From Candidatus Bathyarchaeota archaeon (GTDB lineage: Archaea > Thermoproteota > Bathyarchaeia > Bathyarchaeales > Bathycorpusculaceae), in assembly GCA_963715865.1 (NCBI GenBank), contig OY970280.1, positions 1,024,001 through 1,088,000 on the forward strand: a DNA stretch of 64,000 nt, written 5' to 3'. The notes under the pieces were generated by a model. That model was not told the DNA's origin. It was given only the letters and a program-made list of their open reading frames with translations, and did not search any database. Position numbers and translations under genes: made by a program. Numbering within the stretch: the stretch's first letter is position 1; every line of letters begins with the position of its first letter. Positions 1 to 10,074 of this stretch are shown in pieces.

Positions 1-696
1 AATCCAATATTGAAGTGGACATCCCTTGATGTTTGGTTGTACATTTTCTGGAAAGAAATCCCGTACAACAAAGCTTATGAATACGGATTTTCGAGGATAG
101 GCTGCTGGGCATGTCCATCAAAGACTTTGAGGGATTTCTCGATATTGGAGGGGGTACATCCTGAGTTGATAACCAAGCTTTATTCCATTCTCGACAACTT
201 TGCCATGAAACGGAACATTGTCGACAATAAATGGAGTAAATCTGGGGACTGGAGAACTAGAAAGTCTAGAGTTAGTAAAATGAGCGTATGTGCCTCTAAG
301 CCTTGTTCGACAAGCAAAGAGTTTGTGTTTTCTATTAACAATCTTTCAACTGTCTGCAATGTCTTAGAGTTTTTCAAAATATTTGGGAAGATAAAGAAAA
401 GAGGACCAATATCAGTCATCAATGGTACTGATGTGGAACTTTCGACAGTTGGCAAGAGTATTCGAATATTGTTCAAAAACGAGGAGAAAGAAGATCAGAT
501 ACTCCATTACCTTGAAAGAGCACTAAATTGCATTAGCTGTGGTGCATGCCAAGGAGTTTGCAAAGTAGGAGCGATTACGCAATCTGAAGGTCAACGGTTC
601 ATTGATGCAACAAAATGCACGGGGTGCCAGAAATGTCTGATTTTCAGTTGTATTGCATTTCGCTACGGATCCGATCGGATGTCGGTTGAATTGTAA
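1..696 (+). CDS. PAPS reductase-family protein with C-terminal 4Fe-4S ferredoxin domain (5'-truncated by window edge)
   Basis: Frame is open from base 1: NPILKWTSLDVWLYI...YNKAYEYGFSRIGCWACP (PAPS reductase family C-terminal motif), then CISCGACQGVC and CTGCQKC..C clusters. Confidence 0.85.
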   Translation, partial: NPILKWTSLDVWLYIFWKEIPYNKAYEYGFSRIGCWACPSKTLRDFSILEGVHPELITKLYSILDNFAMKRNIVDNKWSKSGDWRTRKSRVSKMSVCASKPCSTSKEFVFSINNLSTVCNVLEFFKIFGKIKKRGPISVINGTDVELSTVGKSIRILFKNEEKEDQILHYLERALNCISCGACQGVCKVGAITQSEGQRFIDATKCTGCQKCLIFSCIAFRYGSDRMSVEL

Positions 697-759
697 TCCT
701 ATCGTTTTGGATAACTGCAGTATTTCTAAGTTATAAGCAGAATCATCGATATTGGTTAT

Positions 760-1155
760 TTGCATTTGAGGTCCTCAGATGTTAAGTCTGTTTCAGGTGA
801 AATAATGACTCGAATCAGGAACCATCAAGTAATTGGAAAACAAGGGGCATATGAGCTTCTAGGACTCCTTGAACAGAATTTGAACTTAACCGAGTCTTTA
901 ATTGTTGACAAACTAAGCAGAATCTTGTCTTCAAAAGAAACTTCTAAACTTACGAGAGAACTTTTAGACATCGCATTTATCAGGCGTATACCTCAAAAAG
1001 AATATTTGGAGCTGACTGATATTGGACGAGAAGCCTTCCTCCTTGCGAAAGTTATTAATGGAGCGTCTCTTGATTCAGTCGTAAATCAACTTTCAAGACT
1101 TCGAGCTAGGCAGCTTCTCTCTGATTACTCAGGATATTTGCGGATGCTTCCTTAA
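760..1155 (+). CDS. Winged-helix domain protein; probably the N-terminal half of a wHTH-PLD fusion
   Basis: Helical HTH followed by ELLDIAFIRR...YLELTDIGRE wing motif; its stop lies 1 nt before the next ATG. Confidence 0.6.
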   Translation: MHLRSSDVKSVSGEIMTRIRNHQVIGKQGAYELLGLLEQNLNLTESLIVDKLSRILSSKETSKLTRELLDIAFIRRIPQKEYLELTDIGREAFLLAKVINGASLDSVVNQLSRLRARQLLSDYSGYLRMLP

Positions 1156-1156
1156 C

Positions 1157-1612
1157 ATGATCAAAAACAGACATGCTGTCGAAGAAGTATACATATGTTC
1201 TCCTTGGATACGACTGAGCGACAATTATCTAGCGGATTTAGAGGAAACCACTCGAAAAAGTCATGGGGGCATCGACTTTCGAATTATTACAAGACCACCT
1301 TCAGAGCTTATTTGCGGCACACCTTCTTCGTGGCATAATCAATCCCTGAAAACACTAAGATGGTTTAAGGAACACGATGCTGATATGGTTAAACTAAGGA
1401 AATTGCATACAAAGTTGTATTGTGCACTCGGAGGAAATTGGCAATGTGCTCTTTTTGGATCCGAGAATCTTACAGAAGCAGGAAACGTTGAGTTAGGAAT
1501 TCGGATTGATGATGAGCAGATGACGCAAAAACTCTTAAGCTACTTTAATCGAATTTATAGTCACAGCACCGAAATATCAAAGGATGAATTGTATGTCGAG
1601 AATCGATGTTAA
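1157..1612 (+). CDS. Phospholipase D-superfamily (single HxK) nuclease domain
   Basis: VYICSPWI, FRIITRP, LHTKLY and GSENLT...GNVELGI motifs. Confidence 0.85.
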   Translation: MIKNRHAVEEVYICSPWIRLSDNYLADLEETTRKSHGGIDFRIITRPPSELICGTPSSWHNQSLKTLRWFKEHDADMVKLRKLHTKLYCALGGNWQCALFGSENLTEAGNVELGIRIDDEQMTQKLLSYFNRIYSHSTEISKDELYVENRC

Positions 1613-2759
1613 CCTGCATGAATGGTTTGGTCTAACCCGAGATAACTATATACTCAGGCCAAGAGAAATCGTTGAGGACAGGAAATTTTATGCTCGCCGA
1701 CCAGAATCAGTCCAGATAGAGAAACAGATAACCAACCTTGAAGTAGACCTTGCAGGTAAGATGTCTCCCAAGAAGCTATATTGGGGAGTTATTGGTGGAG
1801 GCAAGACTCACACTCTATACAATATTCTAGAAGAACTAAGAGTCAGGCTTGATATAGAGGTAGTTTTCGTTGAATGCCCAGTGACAAAGAAATCTCTCAA
1901 CTTCTCTGAACTTTACAGAAAAGTATTGGATTCAATGGGTATGGACCTTATTGTAAATGATCTGCTTCGGGGCGTAGTCAGCAACGTAGTCCAACGCGTT
2001 GGCATAATTGAGCAGGGCAAAGCGGAAAAGGAACTTAACAAGCTTCTTGGTTACGAAGACTTGGCTAGGGCTTCTTACACGATATTAACAGCAGGTTCAG
2101 AATTTAATCCTCTTACAATGTGGAGGTGGCTTAAAGCAGAGGAAGTCTCGAGCTCTGAAAGAGACAGTCTAAGAGTTTCAGCTGACCTTAAGACAGACCC
2201 AGAAGTACTGGCTGACATTTTGATTCTGATTGGGCGATTTATGCAGGAAAGGAAAAACAAAACTCTTGTTCTTGTTTTTGATGAACTCGATAGGATCCAC
2301 GATGCTTCGGTAGATGCAAAGGAGACTTTTAAAGCGGCATTCACAAAGCTTACCGAGCCTGGGCAGTCATATGTTTCGGTTTTCTTGTGTGCTTCCGCCG
2401 AAAGTTCTGCAAATGTACCAGACCTGATTGGCGAAGCCGTGGAAGACCGACTGAAAGGTGATATCAGTGAGATTCCTACAATGACAAGCAATGATGTGCT
2501 TCCTTTTGTAACGGATCTTGTGAAACACTTTAGGGACCCTGCTGCCAATATTAGCGAATTGGTTAAGATCGCGAAAGAGGAAACAGATGAAACTCTGGAT
2601 GAAGATCTTTATCCTTTTACGCAAGATGCCGTGGAAGCCATCAAAGCTGCTTGCGGCGATAAGAAGACCCCGAGGGCAATAACCAGAGCAATGTCCAAAG
2701 GGGCTGGAAGAGCCGTTATAAGGAAAAAGCACGTTGTTTCCAGCAAAGAAATAGAATAA
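1593..2759 (+). CDS. P-loop AAA+-type ATPase, BrxD/DUF2791-like
   Basis: Walker A GVIGGGKT, Walker B LVLVFDELD, WRWLKAE motif, C-terminal YPFT..A..AI...TPR lid; overlaps the PLD stop. Confidence 0.7.
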   Translation: MSRIDVNLHEWFGLTRDNYILRPREIVEDRKFYARRPESVQIEKQITNLEVDLAGKMSPKKLYWGVIGGGKTHTLYNILEELRVRLDIEVVFVECPVTKKSLNFSELYRKVLDSMGMDLIVNDLLRGVVSNVVQRVGIIEQGKAEKELNKLLGYEDLARASYTILTAGSEFNPLTMWRWLKAEEVSSSERDSLRVSADLKTDPEVLADILILIGRFMQERKNKTLVLVFDELDRIHDASVDAKETFKAAFTKLTEPGQSYVSVFLCASAESSANVPDLIGEAVEDRLKGDISEIPTMTSNDVLPFVTDLVKHFRDPAANISELVKIAKEETDETLDEDLYPFTQDAVEAIKAACGDKKTPRAITRAMSKGAGRAVIRKKHVVSSKEIE

Positions 2760-2786
2760 GAACGGAAATACAGGTCTGCAACCTTT

Positions 2787-4232
2787 ATGATAGCTCAGAA
2801 ACCCATAAGTTTCGATCACGGTTACCGCTTTTTCGATCCTCTTAAACTTGCTCAATTTGGTTCAGAAGGAGATCTTATTGCGGGACTGATTAGCGAGGAA
2901 AAAAACCCGGATGCAATCTTCTTTGGGAAGATCGCAGAATTCGATGGGATAATGGGAAAGAATGTTTGGTTTGACACTAAAGGCGCCCATGTAATATACA
3001 TAATAGGAAAACGAAGGGGCGGAAAAAGCTTCACATTAGGAACGTTAGCGGAAGGTTTGGGCTCAGATACATTTCATGTTGGTGATTCTAAGCAAGCTAT
3101 CCTCATTTTGGACACTCTCAACATTTTCTGGACTATGGAAAGCGGAGCAACAGACTCAGAACAATTGAAGGAACTTGAAAAATGGGGTCTAAAACCTGAA
3201 CCAATGAAAAATGTTGTGTGCTTTTATCCTAGGGGGCTAAAAAAACCGTATACTCCTCAACATTACAAAGAATTTGCACTGAAACCATCTGACCTTGAAG
3301 GGTCAGATTGGGCAGCACTCTTCGGTGTTGATCCCATATTGGATCCAATGGGCCAGTTACTGACGGAATTGCATGAAAAAGTGGCTATTGACGGATACAC
3401 AGGGGCAGGATCTTTCGTAAAACCTAACCACAATTATTCTGTTTCTGACCTTCTCCAATGCCTCAGCAGGGACAAAGAAATTTTGAGGTTTGCCACTCAA
3501 ACTATTGAAGCGGTAAGACGATATCTAAAAGCAGTAGAACGGTCTCCATTCTTCTCAAGTACAGGAACCGATGTAAGAGACATTTTTAGAAAAGGCCAAA
3601 TAACAATTTTGCTATTACGGGACCTTGATCAGCAAATTAGAGGATTAATAATCGGGCTCTTGATCAAAAAAATTATGAAAATTCGCGGGGAAACGGTTGA
3701 ATGCGAAAAAAGGCTGGCCATAAAGAAGAAGCAACTTAGCCTTTCTGAAAAGAGTCAGGAACAAACACCTGATGCCGATTCAGTAACCCTGGAAAAACTC
3801 GTGGAAAATGGTTTACCGAGAGGTTGGATTCTAATTGATGAGGCGCATAATTACATTCCTCAAAACGGAATAATCGGTTCAAAAGAACCTCTTAAGAAAT
3901 ATGTGAATGAAGGGCGCAATATCGGGCTTTCTATTGCGGTTACAACTCAACAACCATCAGGACTTGATGCAGCAATAAGAAGAAATGCGGATATCCTAGT
4001 TGTTCATGCCATTACTATGGCGAGTGATTTGGAAGTGACTGAAGGTATGCTGAATACATCAGTGCCAAAGACCGTTGCTATCGAAAGAAAAAAAGTTGAC
4101 GCCCATGTCTTCGAAAACATGGTCCGCGACCTCAAAATAGGCTACGCCATCATATCTTGCGTAAACGTCAACAGAGTCTTTCTCGTTAAGGTAAGACCAA
4201 GAGCTACCACACATGGCGGGGTTGAATATTAA
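2787..4232 (+). CDS. HerA/FtsK-like ATPase (DUF87 family)
   Basis: HVIYIIGKRRGGKS, ILILDTLNIF, ILIDEAHNY, EGRNIGLSIAVTTQQPS. Confidence 0.85.
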   Translation: MIAQKPISFDHGYRFFDPLKLAQFGSEGDLIAGLISEEKNPDAIFFGKIAEFDGIMGKNVWFDTKGAHVIYIIGKRRGGKSFTLGTLAEGLGSDTFHVGDSKQAILILDTLNIFWTMESGATDSEQLKELEKWGLKPEPMKNVVCFYPRGLKKPYTPQHYKEFALKPSDLEGSDWAALFGVDPILDPMGQLLTELHEKVAIDGYTGAGSFVKPNHNYSVSDLLQCLSRDKEILRFATQTIEAVRRYLKAVERSPFFSSTGTDVRDIFRKGQITILLLRDLDQQIRGLIIGLLIKKIMKIRGETVECEKRLAIKKKQLSLSEKSQEQTPDADSVTLEKLVENGLPRGWILIDEAHNYIPQNGIIGSKEPLKKYVNEGRNIGLSIAVTTQQPSGLDAAIRRNADILVVHAITMASDLEVTEGMLNTSVPKTVAIERKKVDAHVFENMVRDLKIGYAIISCVNVNRVFLVKVRPRATTHGGVEY

Positions 4233-5430
4233 CAAGAAAGGTTTCATATACAATACTCATGAAAGTGCTGAACGACCTTATTATGTATCTGCGCTGATTA
4301 AGGAATGTACCAAGCCACGTGAATCAATTTCAATTAACAATCTGGCAATTCTTGTCCACCAAAAACTGCGTCGAGAAATGTTTTTTCCAATCCCTGAGAG
4401 AGCGTGTCCATACATAATTCAAACAGCAATAGAGCTTAGGGTTCTTGAGAAAGATGTGTACAACGAAGGCATCGTGAACAGGTGGGGTGCCAGGGGATAT
4501 GTTCTCAACGAAATATCGCCTCAAATACCTTCAGGGCTACCTGACGACCTAAGGCTTCTGGAAAAAGACAGACTTGCTTTCTTGAAATATTACCTTGACG
4601 CCGATGGTCTTGCTCTGCTCTATCTTGTCAACAAGCTCAATTCAGAAGGGGAAATCAAACTTGCGGAACTGGTTCAAGGAAAACAGGTTGAACAAATGTG
4701 GAACAGCATCATCAAAGAATCACTGTTGTATACAAAGAACAGCAAGCTTAGAAGCGAAATGCAAGAGCTTATGAAAAGCAGCAGATTCCTGACAGGAAAC
4801 CCTCGAGCAACCGGCAAAACTTTGGAGCATATCAGGAAACAAAGAGTTACTCCCCATTTGGATATATTGGTGGATTTGGGTATCCTGGAGAGAAGCCCTC
4901 CACCCATGAATAGAACCGCTGTCGCAGAAGGTCTAAGAATGAAGGATAATAGAATGAAGAAGGCTGCATTAACAAGCAGTGAGAGAGTTGTCTATCGTCC
5001 AAAGTTTGAAAACAACATTAATCGAGTAGAGGCCTTTTTGAAGGAGTTTATGAATGCCCAAACTGTGGACCGCATACTCTCAACGCATGAAGGAGGGTTT
5101 TTTTCAGCCGCTGCCTTGATGTATGGTTTCAGTTTCCCCAGAGTTAGTTTAGAAACAGACTTTGTCCTAATACAAAAAGAAGTCGTTAAAGCTTACGAGT
5201 CTTGTCGCGATGACGTATACCGGCTAGCCTTCATTGACGCGATTTCTGATATAGTTTGTGTTAACTTACAAGTATTTGCTAAGAAGGTTTGTGAGCCTCA
5301 AGATGTCCGATCAGTTGTAGAAAAAATGCACCAAGCTTCGGAGAAAGATGTAAGATTTCACAGAGACAACTATGGAGTTATTACCTACCTAGTGTTAAGC
5401 AACGATTATGTCAAGACAGTTTTATCCTAA
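4213..5430 (+). CDS. Hypothetical 405-aa protein, possibly with several winged-helix segments
   Basis: Long ORF overlapping the HerA stop by 20 nt; wHTH-like segments QTAIELRVLEK and HLDILVDLGILER. Confidence 0.6.
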   Translation: MAGLNINKKGFIYNTHESAERPYYVSALIKECTKPRESISINNLAILVHQKLRREMFFPIPERACPYIIQTAIELRVLEKDVYNEGIVNRWGARGYVLNEISPQIPSGLPDDLRLLEKDRLAFLKYYLDADGLALLYLVNKLNSEGEIKLAELVQGKQVEQMWNSIIKESLLYTKNSKLRSEMQELMKSSRFLTGNPRATGKTLEHIRKQRVTPHLDILVDLGILERSPPPMNRTAVAEGLRMKDNRMKKAALTSSERVVYRPKFENNINRVEAFLKEFMNAQTVDRILSTHEGGFFSAAALMYGFSFPRVSLETDFVLIQKEVVKAYESCRDDVYRLAFIDAISDIVCVNLQVFAKKVCEPQDVRSVVEKMHQASEKDVRFHRDNYGVITYLVLSNDYVKTVLS

Positions 5431-5431
5431 A

Positions 5432-6583
5432 CTAATCCTGTGGAACTGTTGGGAAATGAGCTTGAACAAATTCTGGTGTTATTTTGTTTGGATAGATCTC
5501 ATCTTGTGCCCGTGAAGTCAGAAAGTCGAAGTATTTCATAAGATTGCGCGGGGTCAAATCATCCCCTTGTTTTGATATTAATTGAATTGTCAATTTCAAA
5601 CTTTCTTTGGTGAATGGATAGTATTTGTCCTCCACTTTTTCGTTCTGGAATTTTTTATTGCATAGTAAGTCCGAAATGAATTCGAGACTTTCTTCAAACG
5701 TAAGCGGAGGGATTTGAATTGTACGCGAGACCCTGCTTTGCAGGTCCAGAATGAGGAGATCTTTCATAACCGAGAAACTACCAGAAGCAAAGGAGAGGGC
5801 AAGTGAGAGATTATCGGGGCAGAGGTCAAACATATCACGTATTCCTTGTTGTATCGCAACAAAGTTATTTTGACTTTGCTTTCTTATTTCGGCAAAGTAA
5901 TGGCAATCATCTAGCACCCAAATTAAAGAGCAATACTCGTGGCATTTATCATCCTGATAAGTTAACATTCTGACAATAGAAGATGCTGCTTTGACAAAAT
6001 CCGAATCGTCAGTTAGATTTGCTGAAACGCCCAGAACCGATAAATATCTTTTGGAAAGGCGCTCTCCGGAAAGCCAAGCCTGCGAAAGCAAACAAATTGG
6101 GTCTCTAACAGACTTTGACGTTGCGACACTTCTTCCAAGAGCTAGAATGACGTTGGCAATGTCCATCCGCCCGCAAGCTATTTCATTTGTGACGATTTCG
6201 ATGGCCTTCATCTCTTCATCTAAATTTACTCCGCTGGGATTCAGTTTCGTCCAGATATCGGCGGCGACCTTGGCGAGGGCAATTGGGTTCATAGCTGAAA
6301 AAAATCCCTGTTGGTACAAATCTGCAAATCTGCGCATTTCTTTGGGCAGAGGTGAATAAACAACCGTATTCTTTCCCTCTTTTTCGAATGAGTTTTTGAA
6401 ATGAAGTAGAGAGTGAGATTTACCCGCGCCTACATAGCCCCAAACGCATAGCAGCGTCGACCTCTTCTTTTCTATTGTGTCGGCAAACGACATTTTTAAT
6501 TCTTCAAATAATTTCTTTCTATCCGCCCAGATATCAGGGGATCGCTCCGGCACCATTCTAAATGGCCAACTTTTGAAATACAT
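5432..6583 (-). CDS. Second P-loop AAA+-type ATPase, BrxD/DUF2791-like
   Basis: Walker A GYVGAGKS, Walker B LIWVLDDCH, AWLSGE motif, YPFT...LTPR lid; start placed at MYFKSWPF (6583) so the gene does not overlap the divergent ORF. Confidence 0.7.
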   Translation of the reverse strand: MYFKSWPFRMVPERSPDIWADRKKLFEELKMSFADTIEKKRSTLLCVWGYVGAGKSHSLLHFKNSFEKEGKNTVVYSPLPKEMRRFADLYQQGFFSAMNPIALAKVAADIWTKLNPSGVNLDEEMKAIEIVTNEIACGRMDIANVILALGRSVATSKSVRDPICLLSQAWLSGERLSKRYLSVLGVSANLTDDSDFVKAASSIVRMLTYQDDKCHEYCSLIWVLDDCHYFAEIRKQSQNNFVAIQQGIRDMFDLCPDNLSLALSFASGSFSVMKDLLILDLQSRVSRTIQIPPLTFEESLEFISDLLCNKKFQNEKVEDKYYPFTKESLKLTIQLISKQGDDLTPRNLMKYFDFLTSRAQDEIYPNKITPEFVQAHFPTVPQD

Positions 6584-6659
6584 AATTTGACTCCGTGCAT
6601 GAATTTTAGGAATAAGACTATTATCTCTCAACCTAAATAAAACAATGTGGAAATAAAAC

Positions 6660-7721
6660 ATGGCTAGGACTGGGTTTCTTCTCAGCGGAGAAGGCTTTGT
6701 TTGGGCGCGCCAAGGTCTGACCAAAATTAACGAACTGAGCCCTGGGGACAAATTACTTGGACTAGAATCAGGAAAACCCTCATGGTCCATTCTCGAATCG
6801 GTAAGCAAGAGACCCGGTCTTGATCGATTACTTAGAATAACAACGGACGGAAATGAGATTCTAATTTCAAAAGATTCTGAGGTTTTTGCCGTGGGAGGAG
6901 TTAAAAGGGCTTCCGAATTAACGGTGGGTGAAATTATTGAAACTTATAATATTCCGCAGGAAACTCAAGAATTAATGAATGACGGAAAGCCGATCTTCGT
7001 GGAATCTGAAGCAGGGCCTCTACGAATTGATAGCAAAATAGCATACATTTTGGGCACCCAAGTTAGGTCTCAAAAATTTGAGGATAAAGTAATCATAAAA
7101 GACCTTAGTCCAAACCACGCTTATGAAGTTGCCAAGTTGTGCTCAGAGGCATTGAAGGAACAATTCATTCCACATAAGGTCTATTACCTTGATGGAGGAA
7201 AAAAAGTCCGAGTTGACTGCGTTCCTCTGGCTCAAGCTTGCAGAGAAATAACTCAAACGAATATCCCAAGATTCATTCGGCAGTCAAATACTACGGTCTT
7301 GAGGTATTTTCTCATCGGTATACTGGATACCATCATTTGTTTAAATGAATCTGAAGATCCGCCAACTTCGTTCATTACCCTCGCTAAGCAAAGCGAGTTT
7401 AGAAGATTTGTTATAGATTGCTTACGATTGTTTGGAATAATTCCAATAAAGACATACGTTATTCACTCCTCCCAAGGACCTGCATACGTAAAGACATATG
7501 CAAATCCTAAAGACTTGATTCAATTGGGTCTGAAGTTCATCAAGGTTGAAGATGCACCGATTCTGACGGCAATACACGAAAAGGATGCTATGAGTTATTG
7601 CATTATCAGAAATATCTCAGAGTTTCAGGGGAAGCTATATTTTGTGCCCGAACCTAAGCTGCACTGGAGCCTCATAGCGGACATGGCGCCTTTGCATCGC
7701 CACGCTTTCTCTGATCCTTAA
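6660..7721 (+). CDS. Stand-alone degenerate intein (Hint + LAGLIDADG-like) protein
   Basis: LLSGEGFV..RQG...INEL.PGD (block A-like), AYILG and FLIGILDT (blocks C/E-like), CLRLFGI (block H-like), LYFVP...H...IAD...LHR (blocks F/G-like); no exteins. Confidence 0.7.
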   Translation: MARTGFLLSGEGFVWARQGLTKINELSPGDKLLGLESGKPSWSILESVSKRPGLDRLLRITTDGNEILISKDSEVFAVGGVKRASELTVGEIIETYNIPQETQELMNDGKPIFVESEAGPLRIDSKIAYILGTQVRSQKFEDKVIIKDLSPNHAYEVAKLCSEALKEQFIPHKVYYLDGGKKVRVDCVPLAQACREITQTNIPRFIRQSNTTVLRYFLIGILDTIICLNESEDPPTSFITLAKQSEFRRFVIDCLRLFGIIPIKTYVIHSSQGPAYVKTYANPKDLIQLGLKFIKVEDAPILTAIHEKDAMSYCIIRNISEFQGKLYFVPEPKLHWSLIADMAPLHRHAFSDP

Positions 7722-7987: not shown

Positions 7988-8074
7988 ACGCTTGTTAAAC
8001 GCACTAAACAAGTTTAGTCAAAAGCTTTATTGTAAAAAATATTAAAAACTAATGAAAAGTTAGGACTAAATGAG

Positions 8075-8369
8075 TTATTGTGGCTTCCATGTGCAGTTGA
8101 TTGCTTTATTATCGCAGGCTAACACGCATGGAGCCTTATTGGTTTCGGGCTTGCAGGAAGAGCAGGTGTACTTTATTTTTTTCCGGTGCTCCTCCGTAAC
8201 GGATGCAACGGTCTTATCCTCAAGGTCTATGAGCATGGTTTCCAGCTGAAGTGCTGATTGAGGACATTGCTTAACGCATTTGCCGCAGCCGTTGCACTTG
8301 TCTGTGTCGATAGTTATGTAGTAATCGCCTGACCCATTGCTGTAGCCATAATGCGTAATAATAATCCAT
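8075..8369 (-). CDS. BzdM-type ferredoxin (not in ORF track; start codon 1 nt out of frame)
   Basis: Manual translation: ITHYGYSNGSGDYYITIDTDKCNGCGKCVKQCP...KIKYTCSSCKP...PCVLACDNKAINCTW*. Confidence 0.85.
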
Positions 8370-9292
8370 CAACCCCTTCCGTCTGTTTTTTGCGCCTTCT
8401 CATACAGCGCCTTAGCAAAAAGCGCCGCGCCCAACGCACCCGCAATCATCGGGTCTAACCCGTTTTCCCGCCAATTAGGCATCGGCAAACACTTCACGCC
8501 CAAAACAACCTCTATTCTGCTGACAACCCCAATGTTTTTCGACTGCCCACCCGTAATCACCAATTCTTTTTCTAAACCTACCCTATCGATTAAGTTAGCC
8601 ATGCGAACCGCCATGGCTCGCGTGTAAGCAGCCAAAACCATCTCTTTAGACCAGCCCTTACGCAAGAGCCCCATGGCTTCGGTTTTCGCAAAAGCCACGC
8701 AGGTGCAACTTACCGGCGGCGGCTCCTCGTCCACCTTTAATGAGATTTCACCAATTTCTTCAATGGAAATTTTTAGTAAATCAGCGAAAACTTCCATGCC
8801 TCTGCCAGTTCCAGCTGCACATTTGTCATTCATCAAGAAAGAAACCACTCTGCCTGTTTCATCGCTGCGGATGGCTTTGATGTCTTGTCCTCCAACATCC
8901 AGCACGGTTCGAACGCTGGGTCCCCAAATATAATTTGCGCCTTTAGCATGACAAGCAATTTCCGTTACGGCTTTGTTTGCCATGGGAACGTTAACTCGCC
9001 CATAACCCGTGCCAACAATATATTTGAGGTCACTTACCTTAAGCCCAGTTCCCTCCAGCGCCCAATCTAAAGCTTTCTTGGCGCTCTCAGGACTGTTAGA
9101 GCCAGTTCGTGTTATTCCCCAAGAGTAAGCTTCACCATTAATCATTATGGCTGCTTTGGAGCTGACTGAACCAACATCAACACCTGCGGTGATTATGTCC
9201 TTGTTTGTCCATTTCTTGCCCTGCACTACACGATGGTACTCGCGCCAACGCCAAAACTCAACCTCATCCTTAATTGTGCTTGGCTCTTTCAT
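8369..9292 (-). CDS. bzdQ: ATP-dependent activase subunit, benzoyl-CoA reductase BzdQ-like
   Basis: EFWRWREY N-terminus, AGVDVGSVSSK, VGTGYGR, EIACHAKG, DVGGQDIK, MNDKCAAGTGR. Confidence 0.8.
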   Translation of the reverse strand: MKEPSTIKDEVEFWRWREYHRVVQGKKWTNKDIITAGVDVGSVSSKAAIMINGEAYSWGITRTGSNSPESAKKALDWALEGTGLKVSDLKYIVGTGYGRVNVPMANKAVTEIACHAKGANYIWGPSVRTVLDVGGQDIKAIRSDETGRVVSFLMNDKCAAGTGRGMEVFADLLKISIEEIGEISLKVDEEPPPVSCTCVAFAKTEAMGLLRKGWSKEMVLAAYTRAMAVRMANLIDRVGLEKELVITGGQSKNIGVVSRIEVVLGVKCLPMPNWRENGLDPMIAGALGAALFAKALYEKAQKTDGRG

Positions 9293-10074
9293 TTTTGCCC
9301 CTCCTTAGCTCGGCTTGCCGCTGCAAGAGCTGCACCTAAAGCACCAGCAAAATCTGGAAACTCGGGAATCAACACGTTAACACCTAACTTTCGATTTAGC
9401 GATGCAACAAAACCAACGTCCTTTGCTATACCGCCAACCAGAACCACGTCAGGGTTTACCCCTAACCTGTGAACCATAGATGAAATTCGGTCAGCCATTG
9501 CATCAAAAACTGCCCTTGCAATTTCAGGCTTAGACTCTTGGCGGTGAATCAGCGACACAACATCGGATTCACCGAAGATAACGCAGGAAGCGTTTATGGG
9601 GCTTGCCCGTTCCGCCTTAAGCGACAGCGGACCCATTTCCTCCAATTTCACCTCTAAAGCCCTTGCCATCGCCTCAATGAAAGCTCCCGCACCAGCGGCG
9701 CAGCGTTCGTTAACGACAAAATCAACCATGAGACCTTTCTCGTCGCATTTGACGGCTCTTGCTTCTTCGGCGCCAACATCAATTATCGTTCTAGCCTTCG
9801 GAAAAAGGTAGACTCCTGCTTTAGCATCAGCGCCCATCATGCTTACGGTGCTTTTGGCATAAGGCGCCATTTCCATGGCTGAACCAGTAGCAACAAAATA
9901 AGCCACATCAGATATTTTCAGGTTTGCCTTTTTCAGTGCCTCATCCACTGCTTGTTCGGCGGCTTTGGTTGGATCGAACCCTGAGAAAGCTTGTCCTCTT
10001 GATACAACAGCGTCGTCTTTTAGGATTACCGCTTTTACTCTTTGAGTGCCTAAATCCATTCCAACGGTAATCAC
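9289..10074 (-). CDS. bzdP: ATP-dependent activase subunit, benzoyl-CoA reductase BzdP-like
   Basis: ITVGMDLGT, IIDVGAEEAR, NERCAAGAGAFIEAMARALE, CVIFGESDVVSLIH. Confidence 0.75.
   Translation of the reverse strand: MITVGMDLGTQRVKAVILKDDAVVSRGQAFSGFDPTKAAEQAVDEALKKANLKISDVAYFVATGSAMEMAPYAKSTVSMMGADAKAGVYLFPKARTIIDVGAEEARAVKCDEKGLMVDFVVNERCAAGAGAFIEAMARALEVKLEEMGPLSLKAERASPINASCVIFGESDVVSLIHRQESKPEIARAVFDAMADRISSMVHRLGVNPDVVLVGGIAKDVGFVASLNRKLGVNVLIPEFPDFAGALGAALAAASRAKEGQK

Follow-up and report, generated by a model that had tools for sequence, protein, structure and literature searches.

We analyzed a 64,000-nucleotide stretch of DNA (the window; positions 1,024,001-1,088,000 of contig OY970280.1, assembly GCA_963715865.1) from the single-contig 2.35-Mb genome of a Candidatus Bathyarchaeota archaeon. 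At its left end lie genes for a PAPS-reductase/ferredoxin enzyme, a PLD nuclease (ORFs B and C), two AAA+ ATPases (D and G), a HerA/FtsK-like P-loop translocase (E), a multi-winged-helix protein (F) and an intein-like protein (H). The locus probably represents a single restriction-modification-like defence cassette that was acquired horizontally and belongs to a family without a name; in it, a constant core is combined with an exchangeable enzyme that marks DNA (the writer). The earlier note, made from the letters of this DNA, had proposed a new system of self-marking and motor-nuclease restriction. All genes that it named are present where it placed them, with the corrections given below, and its reading is supported at the level of comparative genomics. 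As for novelty, the cassette is uncatalogued, mobile and conserved; however, related capture and BRC systems are known from computational descriptions (PMC10853773, PMC12839542). New in the present locus are a writer variant of the BrxP type, an accessory protein derived from an intein, the site of integration and the broken nuclease gene.

The window begins inside the writer gene, so that positions 1-696 hold only its C-terminal 231 codons. The 15 kb of upstream flank was added as L002, and window positions were obtained by subtracting 15000 from L002 positions; those left of the window are negative.

Conserved core and exchangeable writer slot

Twenty-eight loci from species-representative genomes, together with further contigs that carry relatives of E, were scored by BLASTP of the window proteins against all open reading frames (ORFs). 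In 28 species genomes, five genes are collinear in the order G (~380 aa), B+C (~260 aa), D (~385 aa), E (~490 aa) and F (~360 aa), and further metagenome contigs carry the same core. Among the hosts are Bathyarchaeia and Aenigmatarchaeota on the archaeal side and, on the bacterial side, Dehalococcoidia and other Chloroflexota, Planctomycetota, Desulfobacterales, Binatia, Xanthobacteraceae, Pseudomonadales, Acidobacteriota, Actinomycetota and others. Such loci are rare (of the 401 genomes of a phylum sample, E was found in 1), and the flanks differ completely between loci. The nearest relative of our locus, L008, was found in a Candidatus Bathyarchaeia metagenome-assembled genome and is 85% identical in E. 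The system had been taken for an archaeal one; most instances are in fact bacterial and carry a methylase.

One variable gene sits directly before G or after F. In 20 loci, this slot is occupied by an N6/N4 DNA methylase of 417-648 aa, and an ABC_tran protein (579 aa) fills it in L038. Seven Bathyarchaeia-type loci, among them the window, L008, L003, L037, L045 and L051, have a pair consisting of an RHH gene and a PAPS-reductase gene in this place. The pair is upstream of the core and co-directional in the window and L008, downstream and convergent in L003, L037 and L051, and divergent with H in between in L045. The genes grouped by the earlier note thus do co-occur elsewhere, the core being collinear in 28 loci and the PAPS enzyme being linked to the ATPases in six loci besides our own, with three arrangements in all.

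The exchange of writers was also seen in a maximum-likelihood tree of E. A 10-row clade (100/100) of largely archaeal-type loci holds PAPS, N6/N4, C5 and ABC writers, and an 8-row subclade (99/96) already holds all four types. On the whole tree, the writer label changes at least seven times. A constant core whose modification enzyme can be exchanged is known from restriction-modification-like systems such as BREX types 1 and 4, and the cassette appears to be of this nature. If so, the loci would represent an uncharacterised, widely scattered defence family with the self-marking enzyme as a plug-in part, and, as a natural experiment, they would show how chemically different DNA marks are read by a motor-nuclease.

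Several less common contents of the slot were also observed. Methylases fused to Nmad2 (L004:4922-6868), to a DCD/EVE-like domain (L026:15194-16447) and to ParB_N (L039:724-2520) occur in one locus each. In L036:9094-12054, two C5 methylases flank an HhH-GPD glycosylase. A GNAT and ABC-ATPase fusion of 620-636 aa replaces the methylase after F in L012:6596-8488, L014:12420-14330, L031:12486-14348 and L035:10252-12126. This fusion has a weak PADLOC match to mad3 and is possibly an unconventional writer or an accessory protein. In L003:13017-16337 and L051:5276-8415, a ParB_N protein and a DUF87 ATPase of 587-588 aa adjoin the RHH-PAPS pair. On the other side of these two loci are RadA-like, HTH and Cdc6/Orc1 genes. 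The neighbouring genes may form a second system or a portion of a larger mobile element. Decayed copies of the core were found in Verrucomicrobiae (L033:7083-11556, with D and E in many fragments), Chloroflexia (L025:257-1627, with D in three pieces) and Dehalococcoidia (L014:6780-7964, with G split).

Proteins of the cassette and their proposed roles

The writer gene (L002:14167-15696 = window -833 to 696, plus strand) encodes 509 aa and starts 2 nt after a gene for a 56-aa RHH-like protein (L002:13994-14164 = window -1006 to -836), which directly precedes it. The RHH-like protein has no family match in Pfam, NCBIfam or PADLOC. A desulfurase, methylase or integrase had been expected as a possible upstream neighbour; none was found within 15 kb, where only the RHH-like gene was recognized.

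The identification of the first gene product as a PAPS-reductase-Fe-S protein was borne out by Pfam (PAPS_reduct, 3.7e-42, and Fer4). The protein has a PP-loop (SGGKDS) and, towards the C-terminus, a 2x[4Fe-4S] ferredoxin-like domain with a double CxxCxxCxxxC. Its top profile match is PADLOC BrxP (1.1e-66, model positions 88-508 of 779), and this match spans the PAPS, alpha/beta and Fe-S parts. The matches to SspD (3.3e-15) and DndC (1.4e-11) are far below that of BrxP. In NCBIfam, archaeal PRK13795 'hypothetical protein' models were best, and all were below their cut-offs. BrxP consists of a PAPS reductase, an alpha/beta domain and a 4Fe-4S-like cysteine-rich region, and is usually fused to DUF4007 (PMC12839542). 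Our writer has the layout of BrxP minus DUF4007; the match stops at model position 508, and no DUF4007 match was obtained in any ORF.

The writer is the sole full PAPS_reduct match in the genome. Furthermore, a search of 20 other genomes of the genus (E <= 1e-5) did not find it, so that it was seen in 1 of 21 genomes. A housekeeping PAPS reductase was ruled out by this single match, by the absence from the 20 congeners and by the linkage to the core. The earlier note had named a housekeeping enzyme unlinked to the ATPases as the result that would speak against its proposal, and the opposite was found.

Relatives of the writer also occur outside the cassette, two of them in other defence-like settings. 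In L043:6633-11394, a relative of 42-44% identity is accompanied by three ParB_N/HTH_ParB/ASCH proteins, AbiE and a SACS/NOV protein. In L044:8442-17608, the neighbours of a 42%-identical relative are a cysteine-desulfurase-like gene, Hjc, a DUF87 ATPase and a 1505-aa protein. A further relative (34%) sits among Cdc6-lid ATPases and an integrase. The host genome encodes strong Aminotran_5 (desulfurase) genes elsewhere, and a sulfur supply in trans is plausible for this reason.

The probable mark is phosphorothioate. BrxP with BrxC makes phosphorothioate, and tdpC alone is described as enough for phosphorothioate synthesis in Tdp (PMC12914056). Another reading accepts the cassette as real and assigns its PAPS-family enzyme a different product, namely another adenylation-driven mark on the backbone or on bases, or a modified nucleotide or RNA. 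The PP-loop/PAPS-reductase fold does serve many chemistries, the PRK13795 forms are sub-threshold, the matches to DndC and SspD are weak, and the slot is elsewhere taken by Nmad2 or GNAT-ABC proteins of unknown chemistry. We nevertheless regard a different product as unlikely, because BrxP is by far the best profile match over all three parts, because the characterised defence-linked homologues (DndC, SspD, BrxP and TdpC) all make phosphorothioate (PMC12914056), and because a close relative of the writer lies beside a desulfurase-like gene. If phosphorothioate is indeed the product, the PAPS form of the cassette would be a new genetic context for DNA phosphorothioation in uncultured archaea, and it would present a writer stripped to its catalytic core together with candidate trans-acting partners.

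The nuclease is encoded on the plus strand in two pieces. ORF B (806-1155; the listed ORF is 760-1155 and the homologous start is ATG 806) corresponds to the N-terminal winged-helix-like half, and ORF C (1157-1612, 151 aa from ATG 1157) to the PLD half with its HKD motif. The claim of a winged helix-turn-helix (wHTH) PLD nuclease stands in that both halves are present; however, they form one gene in 29 of 30 relatives (in L008, a single ORF of 264 aa) and are split by a frameshift here. ORF C matches Pfam PLDc_2 (3.6e-08) and RE_NgoFVII (7.6e-05) as a single HKD domain, and weakly the PADLOC models DrmC, ZacB and DpdK. The PLD-superfamily pattern HxK(x)4D...GSxN was found, with intact HxK and GSxN motifs, and H199, K201, G216, S217 and N219 are invariant in 30 relatives. 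ORF B has no match in Pfam, NCBIfam, PADLOC or PHROG, and a profile of the 30 relatives gave a weak MarR-type match (MepR, E 0.055) at positions 14-105.

The two AAA+ ATPases were analyzed together. D (1584-2759, plus strand, 391 aa) overlaps the PLD ORF at 1584-1612, as had been described. G (5432-6583, minus strand, 383 aa from the homologous start) is the convergent second ATPase of the earlier note, its stop codon being 1 nt from that of F. In bacterial loci, G is the first gene of the operon; here it is relocated as well as convergent. Both proteins match AAA_22, AAA_16 and ATPase_2 in Pfam. D has the motifs GGGKTH (Walker A) and FDELD (Walker B), and G is its paralogue (BLASTP 1e-11, 22% identity over 334 aa). 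D is kept at 31-87% identity in 27 loci, and orthologues of G were found in 24. No nuclease-domain match was obtained for either protein (~385 aa).

The label 'BrxD-like' that both ATPases had received is only partly justified. Neither has a direct Pfam or PADLOC match to BrxD, whereas in the ESM-Atlas clusters nearest to D (score 0.94-0.99), 20-100% of the members carry PF10923 (BrxC_BrxD). Profiles of D and G against the PDB were marginal, the best matches being human CDC6 (E 0.006, for D) and TnsC (0.09). BrxD has been classed as a stand-alone ORC/Cdc6 AAA+ ATPase and a proposed helicase loader (PMC12839542). Thus, a BrxC/D-like or ORC-like label for D and G is a lead and not a membership.

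E (2787-4232, plus strand, 481 aa) is a divergent HerA/FtsK-type protein. The HerA identity given to it in the earlier note is supported by Pfam DUF87 (8.6e-06) together with Zot, and by PADLOC mad8 (7.7e-20) and several HerA models; the PDB matches to HerA reach 8e-06 at best. E has hundreds of relatives in bacteria and archaea, at 40-88% identity.

F (4213-5430, plus strand, 405 aa) overlaps E at 4213-4232, also as previously reported. It has no match in Pfam, NCBIfam, PADLOC or PHROG, and the PDB sequence and profile searches, SspB included, were empty. An AlphaFold2 model based on 29 relatives reached pLDDT 90 and pTM 0.91. In an exhaustive VIA search with this model, the FokI recognition domain came first (Z 10.6, 192 aa, root-mean-square deviation 4.0) and N.BspD6I second (Z 10.0, 211 residues), followed by many single winged-helix domains. 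Foldseek lists SspB (probability 0.96, E 0.019). Three unannotated Atlas clusters share the fold (TM 0.65-0.70), and the family comprises 408 cluster representatives at E <= 0.001 among 1.84 billion. Thus, F is not the orphan that it had been called; it models as a FokI-like multi-winged-helix DNA-recognition protein. F is also the least conserved core protein, with ~20% identity between clades as against ~45% for E. A role as specificity subunit would fit, because F evolves fastest in the core. The prediction of an E+F complex scored 0.00 and weighs neither way.

H (6660-7721, plus strand, divergent from G) had been taken for a gene stub at the right border. It is a complete ORF of 353 aa, which is the whole protein without a host extein. 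H has no match in Pfam, NCBIfam, PADLOC or PHROG. Its AlphaFold2 model (pLDDT 82) has the TliVMA intein as the best Foldseek match (9.9e-15, TM 0.62), further matches being PI-SceI, PI-PfuI and, for the LAGLIDADG part, also I-DmoI. The modelled fold is that of an intein, a Hint domain with an inserted LAGLIDADG homing-endonuclease domain. In the family alignment, the first Hint position is F or L, block B reads TTDxxE, and the proteins end in LHR(H) or are shorter. Hence the N-terminal nucleophile, the block B histidine and the terminal HN are all missing, and so is the acidic residue at the catalytic place of both LAGLIDADG-like motifs. Nine relatives (19-49% identity) have intact ORFs beside G in archaeal-type loci; homologues adjoin G in L003, L006/7, L036-L039, L045 and probably L051. 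The two genes are divergent in most of these loci and convergent in L006/7 and L038. The term 'dead intein' therefore holds for the fold and for the lost catalytic residues, but H is a conserved accessory of archaeal loci rather than a stub.

The yeast HO endonuclease is a free-standing domesticated intein with an active endonuclease. H is likewise free-standing, with the whole intein architecture (Hint and LAGLIDADG) and no extein. In contrast to HO, it lacks the catalytic acids of both LAGLIDADG motifs and all splicing residues, is prokaryotic and is tied to a defence cassette. If this interpretation is right, H would be a rare prokaryotic case of intein domestication.

From these assignments, the cassette may work as follows. 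The BrxP-type writer, with the small RHH regulator, would label host DNA with phosphorothioate or with a similar backbone mark that depends on adenylation; the sulfur would be supplied by a cysteine desulfurase whose gene lies elsewhere. F would direct the writer to its sites and thereby stand in for the DUF4007/SspB module, which in BrxP is present in cis, and an AAA+ ATPase would assist the writer, in the role of BrxC/SspC. Where the DNA is unmarked, the HerA-like hexamer would be loaded or activated by the AAA+ ATPases; it would pull in the DNA, and a dimer of the single-HKD PLD nuclease would cleave it. H might be a DNA-binding adaptor or a regulator of G in the archaeal branch.

Several points weigh against a self-marking defence cassette of this kind. 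The writer has no DUF4007 fusion and no partner of the size of DndD, SspC or BrxC, and the idea that D, G or F substitutes for the missing partners is pure inference. One core would have to read methyl, phosphorothioate and other marks. The likeness of F to SspB comes from Foldseek alone and is absent from the sequence searches and from the top VIA rows. D and G have no direct match to BrxD, the island contains no integrase, and the PLD gene is broken here, so that this copy may be decaying. The analysis shows the gene content, its conservation and linkage, the folds, the island borders and the frameshift; the chemistry, the order of events and the defence role are what we infer.

The defence reading can be extended. 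It is possible, though doubtful, that the cassette represents a fifth kind of phosphorothioate immunity after Dnd, Ssp, Tdp and BREX type 4. In that case a writer-agnostic HerA-PLD core would be protected by the mark of any writer (6mA/4mC, 5mC, phosphorothioate or the GNAT-ABC product), and the archaeal branch would have a domesticated dead intein as a subunit.

Island borders and the frameshifted nuclease gene

The RHH, writer, nuclease, D, E, F, G and H genes make up exactly an island of 9.77 kb, which is missing at the same site in three sister genomes. Homology with the sister genomes ends at 8072-8078 and resumes at -4135 (G077) or in a 370-aa gene left of -1937 (G318). The island is bounded by a direct repeat of ~80 nt, the two copies of which are the only ones in the genome; they share 80% identity and contain exactly matching cores of 17 and 11 nt. 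The left copy lies at L002:13313-13391 (window -1687 to -1609) and the right copy at 8082-8160. The last ~26 codons of a small ferredoxin gene (8075-8368, minus strand), at its 3' end, make up the right copy, and the left copy encodes a similar C-terminal peptide. Thus, the element was integrated into the 3' end of the ferredoxin gene, and the repeats look like att sites. A comparison of the repeat copies with the sister genomes did not distinguish the native one. The G+C content of the island (0.41) is not distinctive.

Rfam scans of both island borders gave no match. The conserved 300 nt at 8075-8368 were considered as an RNA and rejected, this segment being the small ferredoxin gene. Upstream of the RHH gene, a stretch of ~600 bp (L002:13392-13993 = window -1608 to -1007) has no ORF of at least 60 aa and no Rfam match; it may serve as a promoter or in regulation, or be what is left of a gene.

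Since the island is integrated and has att-like repeats, the core might not serve immunity and might instead be a DNA-handling module of a mobile element, for segregation, packaging, replication initiation or addiction, that travels with a modification gene. Plasmids and viruses use HerA/FtsK and ORC/Cdc6 ATPases, the neighbours in L003 and L051 include ParB_N, a second DUF87 ATPase, RadA-like and Cdc6 proteins, and E has a weak match to a terminase PHROG (5e-10). However, the core is not accompanied by any conserved capsid, replication or integrase gene. Viral contigs gave no confirmed relative of E, and plasmids yielded only one distant relative (25% identical, in Haloplanus). Moreover, the constant pairing of a nuclease with a DNA-modifying enzyme is the signature of restriction-modification, and the flanks are completely different from locus to locus. 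A DNA-handling module is therefore quite unlikely in our view, and a defence cassette remains the preferred explanation.

The frameshift was located by DNA alignment with L008, the closest relative. One extra base within GCTAGGCAGC (1105-1114, plus strand) splits the nuclease gene here. The last ~15 codons of ORF B are consequently out of frame, and the conserved residues FSLITQDICGCFLN are encoded in the frame of ORF C, 5' of ATG 1157. A programmed +1 shift at CCU-UAA-C (1141-1159) was rejected, because homology puts the frame change ~45 nt upstream and because 29 of the 30 relatives have one ORF. Judged from these alignments, the frameshift is not a feature of the family. A search for sequencing runs that cover positions 800-1500 listed none. 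Provided that the sequence is correct, the restriction arm of this genome is probably inactivated or impaired, while the writer is intact. The locus records a recent insertion at the 3' end of a ferredoxin gene, and it may also exemplify a restriction arm lost before the writer.

Such a break could also mean that the locus is a decaying remnant without present function, with the PAPS enzyme at most an orphan writer. The degraded copies L033 and L025 and the split G of L014 are in line with this idea. The seven other genes, however, are intact and of full length, with 34-88% identity to their relatives. The single-base indel may be an assembly error, and the PLD half still has an ATG of its own, with its HKD motif undamaged. 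We therefore consider a functionless remnant very unlikely.

Comparison with known systems

PADLOC 2.0, run on the window and on the bacterial loci, gave no name beyond BrxP and mad8 and named no system, in agreement with the statement that the gene set fits no catalogued one. Nor did we find a paper in which a PAPS reductase, HerA and PLD belong to a single system.

The closest described systems are computational. In the HerA/FtsK-Orc/Cdc6 capture systems (Rakesh, Aravind and Krishnan, NAR 2024, PMC10853773), a rapidly evolving multi-wHTH protein related to DndG/SspB/FokI is present. Our cassette shares with them HerA/FtsK, an ORC/Cdc6-type AAA+ ATPase, a fast-evolving multi-wHTH protein and a nuclease, in sporadic mobile neighbourhoods. 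The trio of HerA/FtsK, Orc/Cdc6-type ATPase and wHTH protein is thus present here, with weak evidence for the Orc/Cdc6 member (D). In contrast, the capture systems have an effector of the restriction endonuclease (REase) fold and an inactive REase inserted in the Orc/Cdc6 protein. The cassette has a wHTH-PLD effector, two small stand-alone ATPases and a near-constant DNA-modification neighbour.

The BRC system (Rakesh and Krishnan, NAR 2026, PMC12839542) consists of PglZ, DUF6079, STAND, DUF4007, HerA and GNAT/TGT. HerA/FtsK, a BrxC-type ORC/Cdc6 ATPase, a tripartite wHTH protein (DUF4007) and an optional modification enzyme (GNAT/TGT) resemble our set. However, the PglZ effector, the large DUF6079/BrxC, the STAND NTPase and TGT are there and not here, and BRC has no PLD. 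PglZ, DUF6079/BrxC, STAND NTPase and DUF4007 were not detected in the window or in the related loci examined.

BREX type 4 and Ssp are similar in the writer. The BrxP architecture of BREX type 4 (PAPS reductase, alpha/beta and Fe-S) was found, and an AAA+ NTPase and a multi-wHTH protein stand beside it, as BrxC/SspC and DUF4007/SspB do. The swap of a methylase for a PAPS reductase between subtypes is also known from BREX types 1 and 4. The cassette differs in having no DUF4007 fusion, no ATPase of BrxC/SspC size, no PglZ, BrxL or SspE, and a restriction arm of HerA and PLD. F resembles a tripartite wHTH protein at the level of the fold only. No PADLOC or Pfam match to BrxC, PglZ or BrxL was obtained in the island or in the 15 kb upstream. 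Likewise, there was no model match to SspC or SspB and none to DndD or DndE; of these two systems, only the low-scoring SspD and DndC matches of the writer were seen.

MADS is a methylation-linked multi-ATPase operon of mad1-8, in which mad6, mad7 and mad8 are mandatory (Maestri et al., bioRxiv 10.1101/2023.03.30.534895). The cassette is also a multi-ATPase operon linked to methylation, and E fits mad8; however, mad6, mad7 and mad3/mad4 (OLD-like) were not detected here, and the other genes differ. TdpABC (An et al., Nat Chem Biol 2025, as described in PMC12914056) offers a precedent for phosphorothioate synthesis by a single PAPS-reductase-family gene (tdpC) beside a compact restriction module. 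Membership in BREX type 4, Ssp, Dnd, MADS or DISARM, for which the BrxP-like writer, the mad8-like E and the weak DrmC matches of the PLD protein could be cited, is highly improbable, since PADLOC and the 15-kb flank revealed no BrxC/PglZ/BrxL, SspB/C, DndD/E, mad6/mad7 or DrmA/B.

The search for relatives of E also yielded a BRC-like locus in a cultured haloarchaeon, Haloplanus sp. HW8-1 (L052:2720-9691, plasmid NZ_CP098519.1). It encodes a 1363-aa BREX ATP-binding-domain protein, a 380-aa hypothetical protein, a HerA-like ATPase (25% identical to E) and a GNAT protein, and experiments may be feasible in this host. Immediately to the right of the island in our window, two BadF/BadG/BcrA/BcrD-type activator ATPases with a small ferredoxin (8369-10074) were observed, and these genes are kept in the sister genomes.

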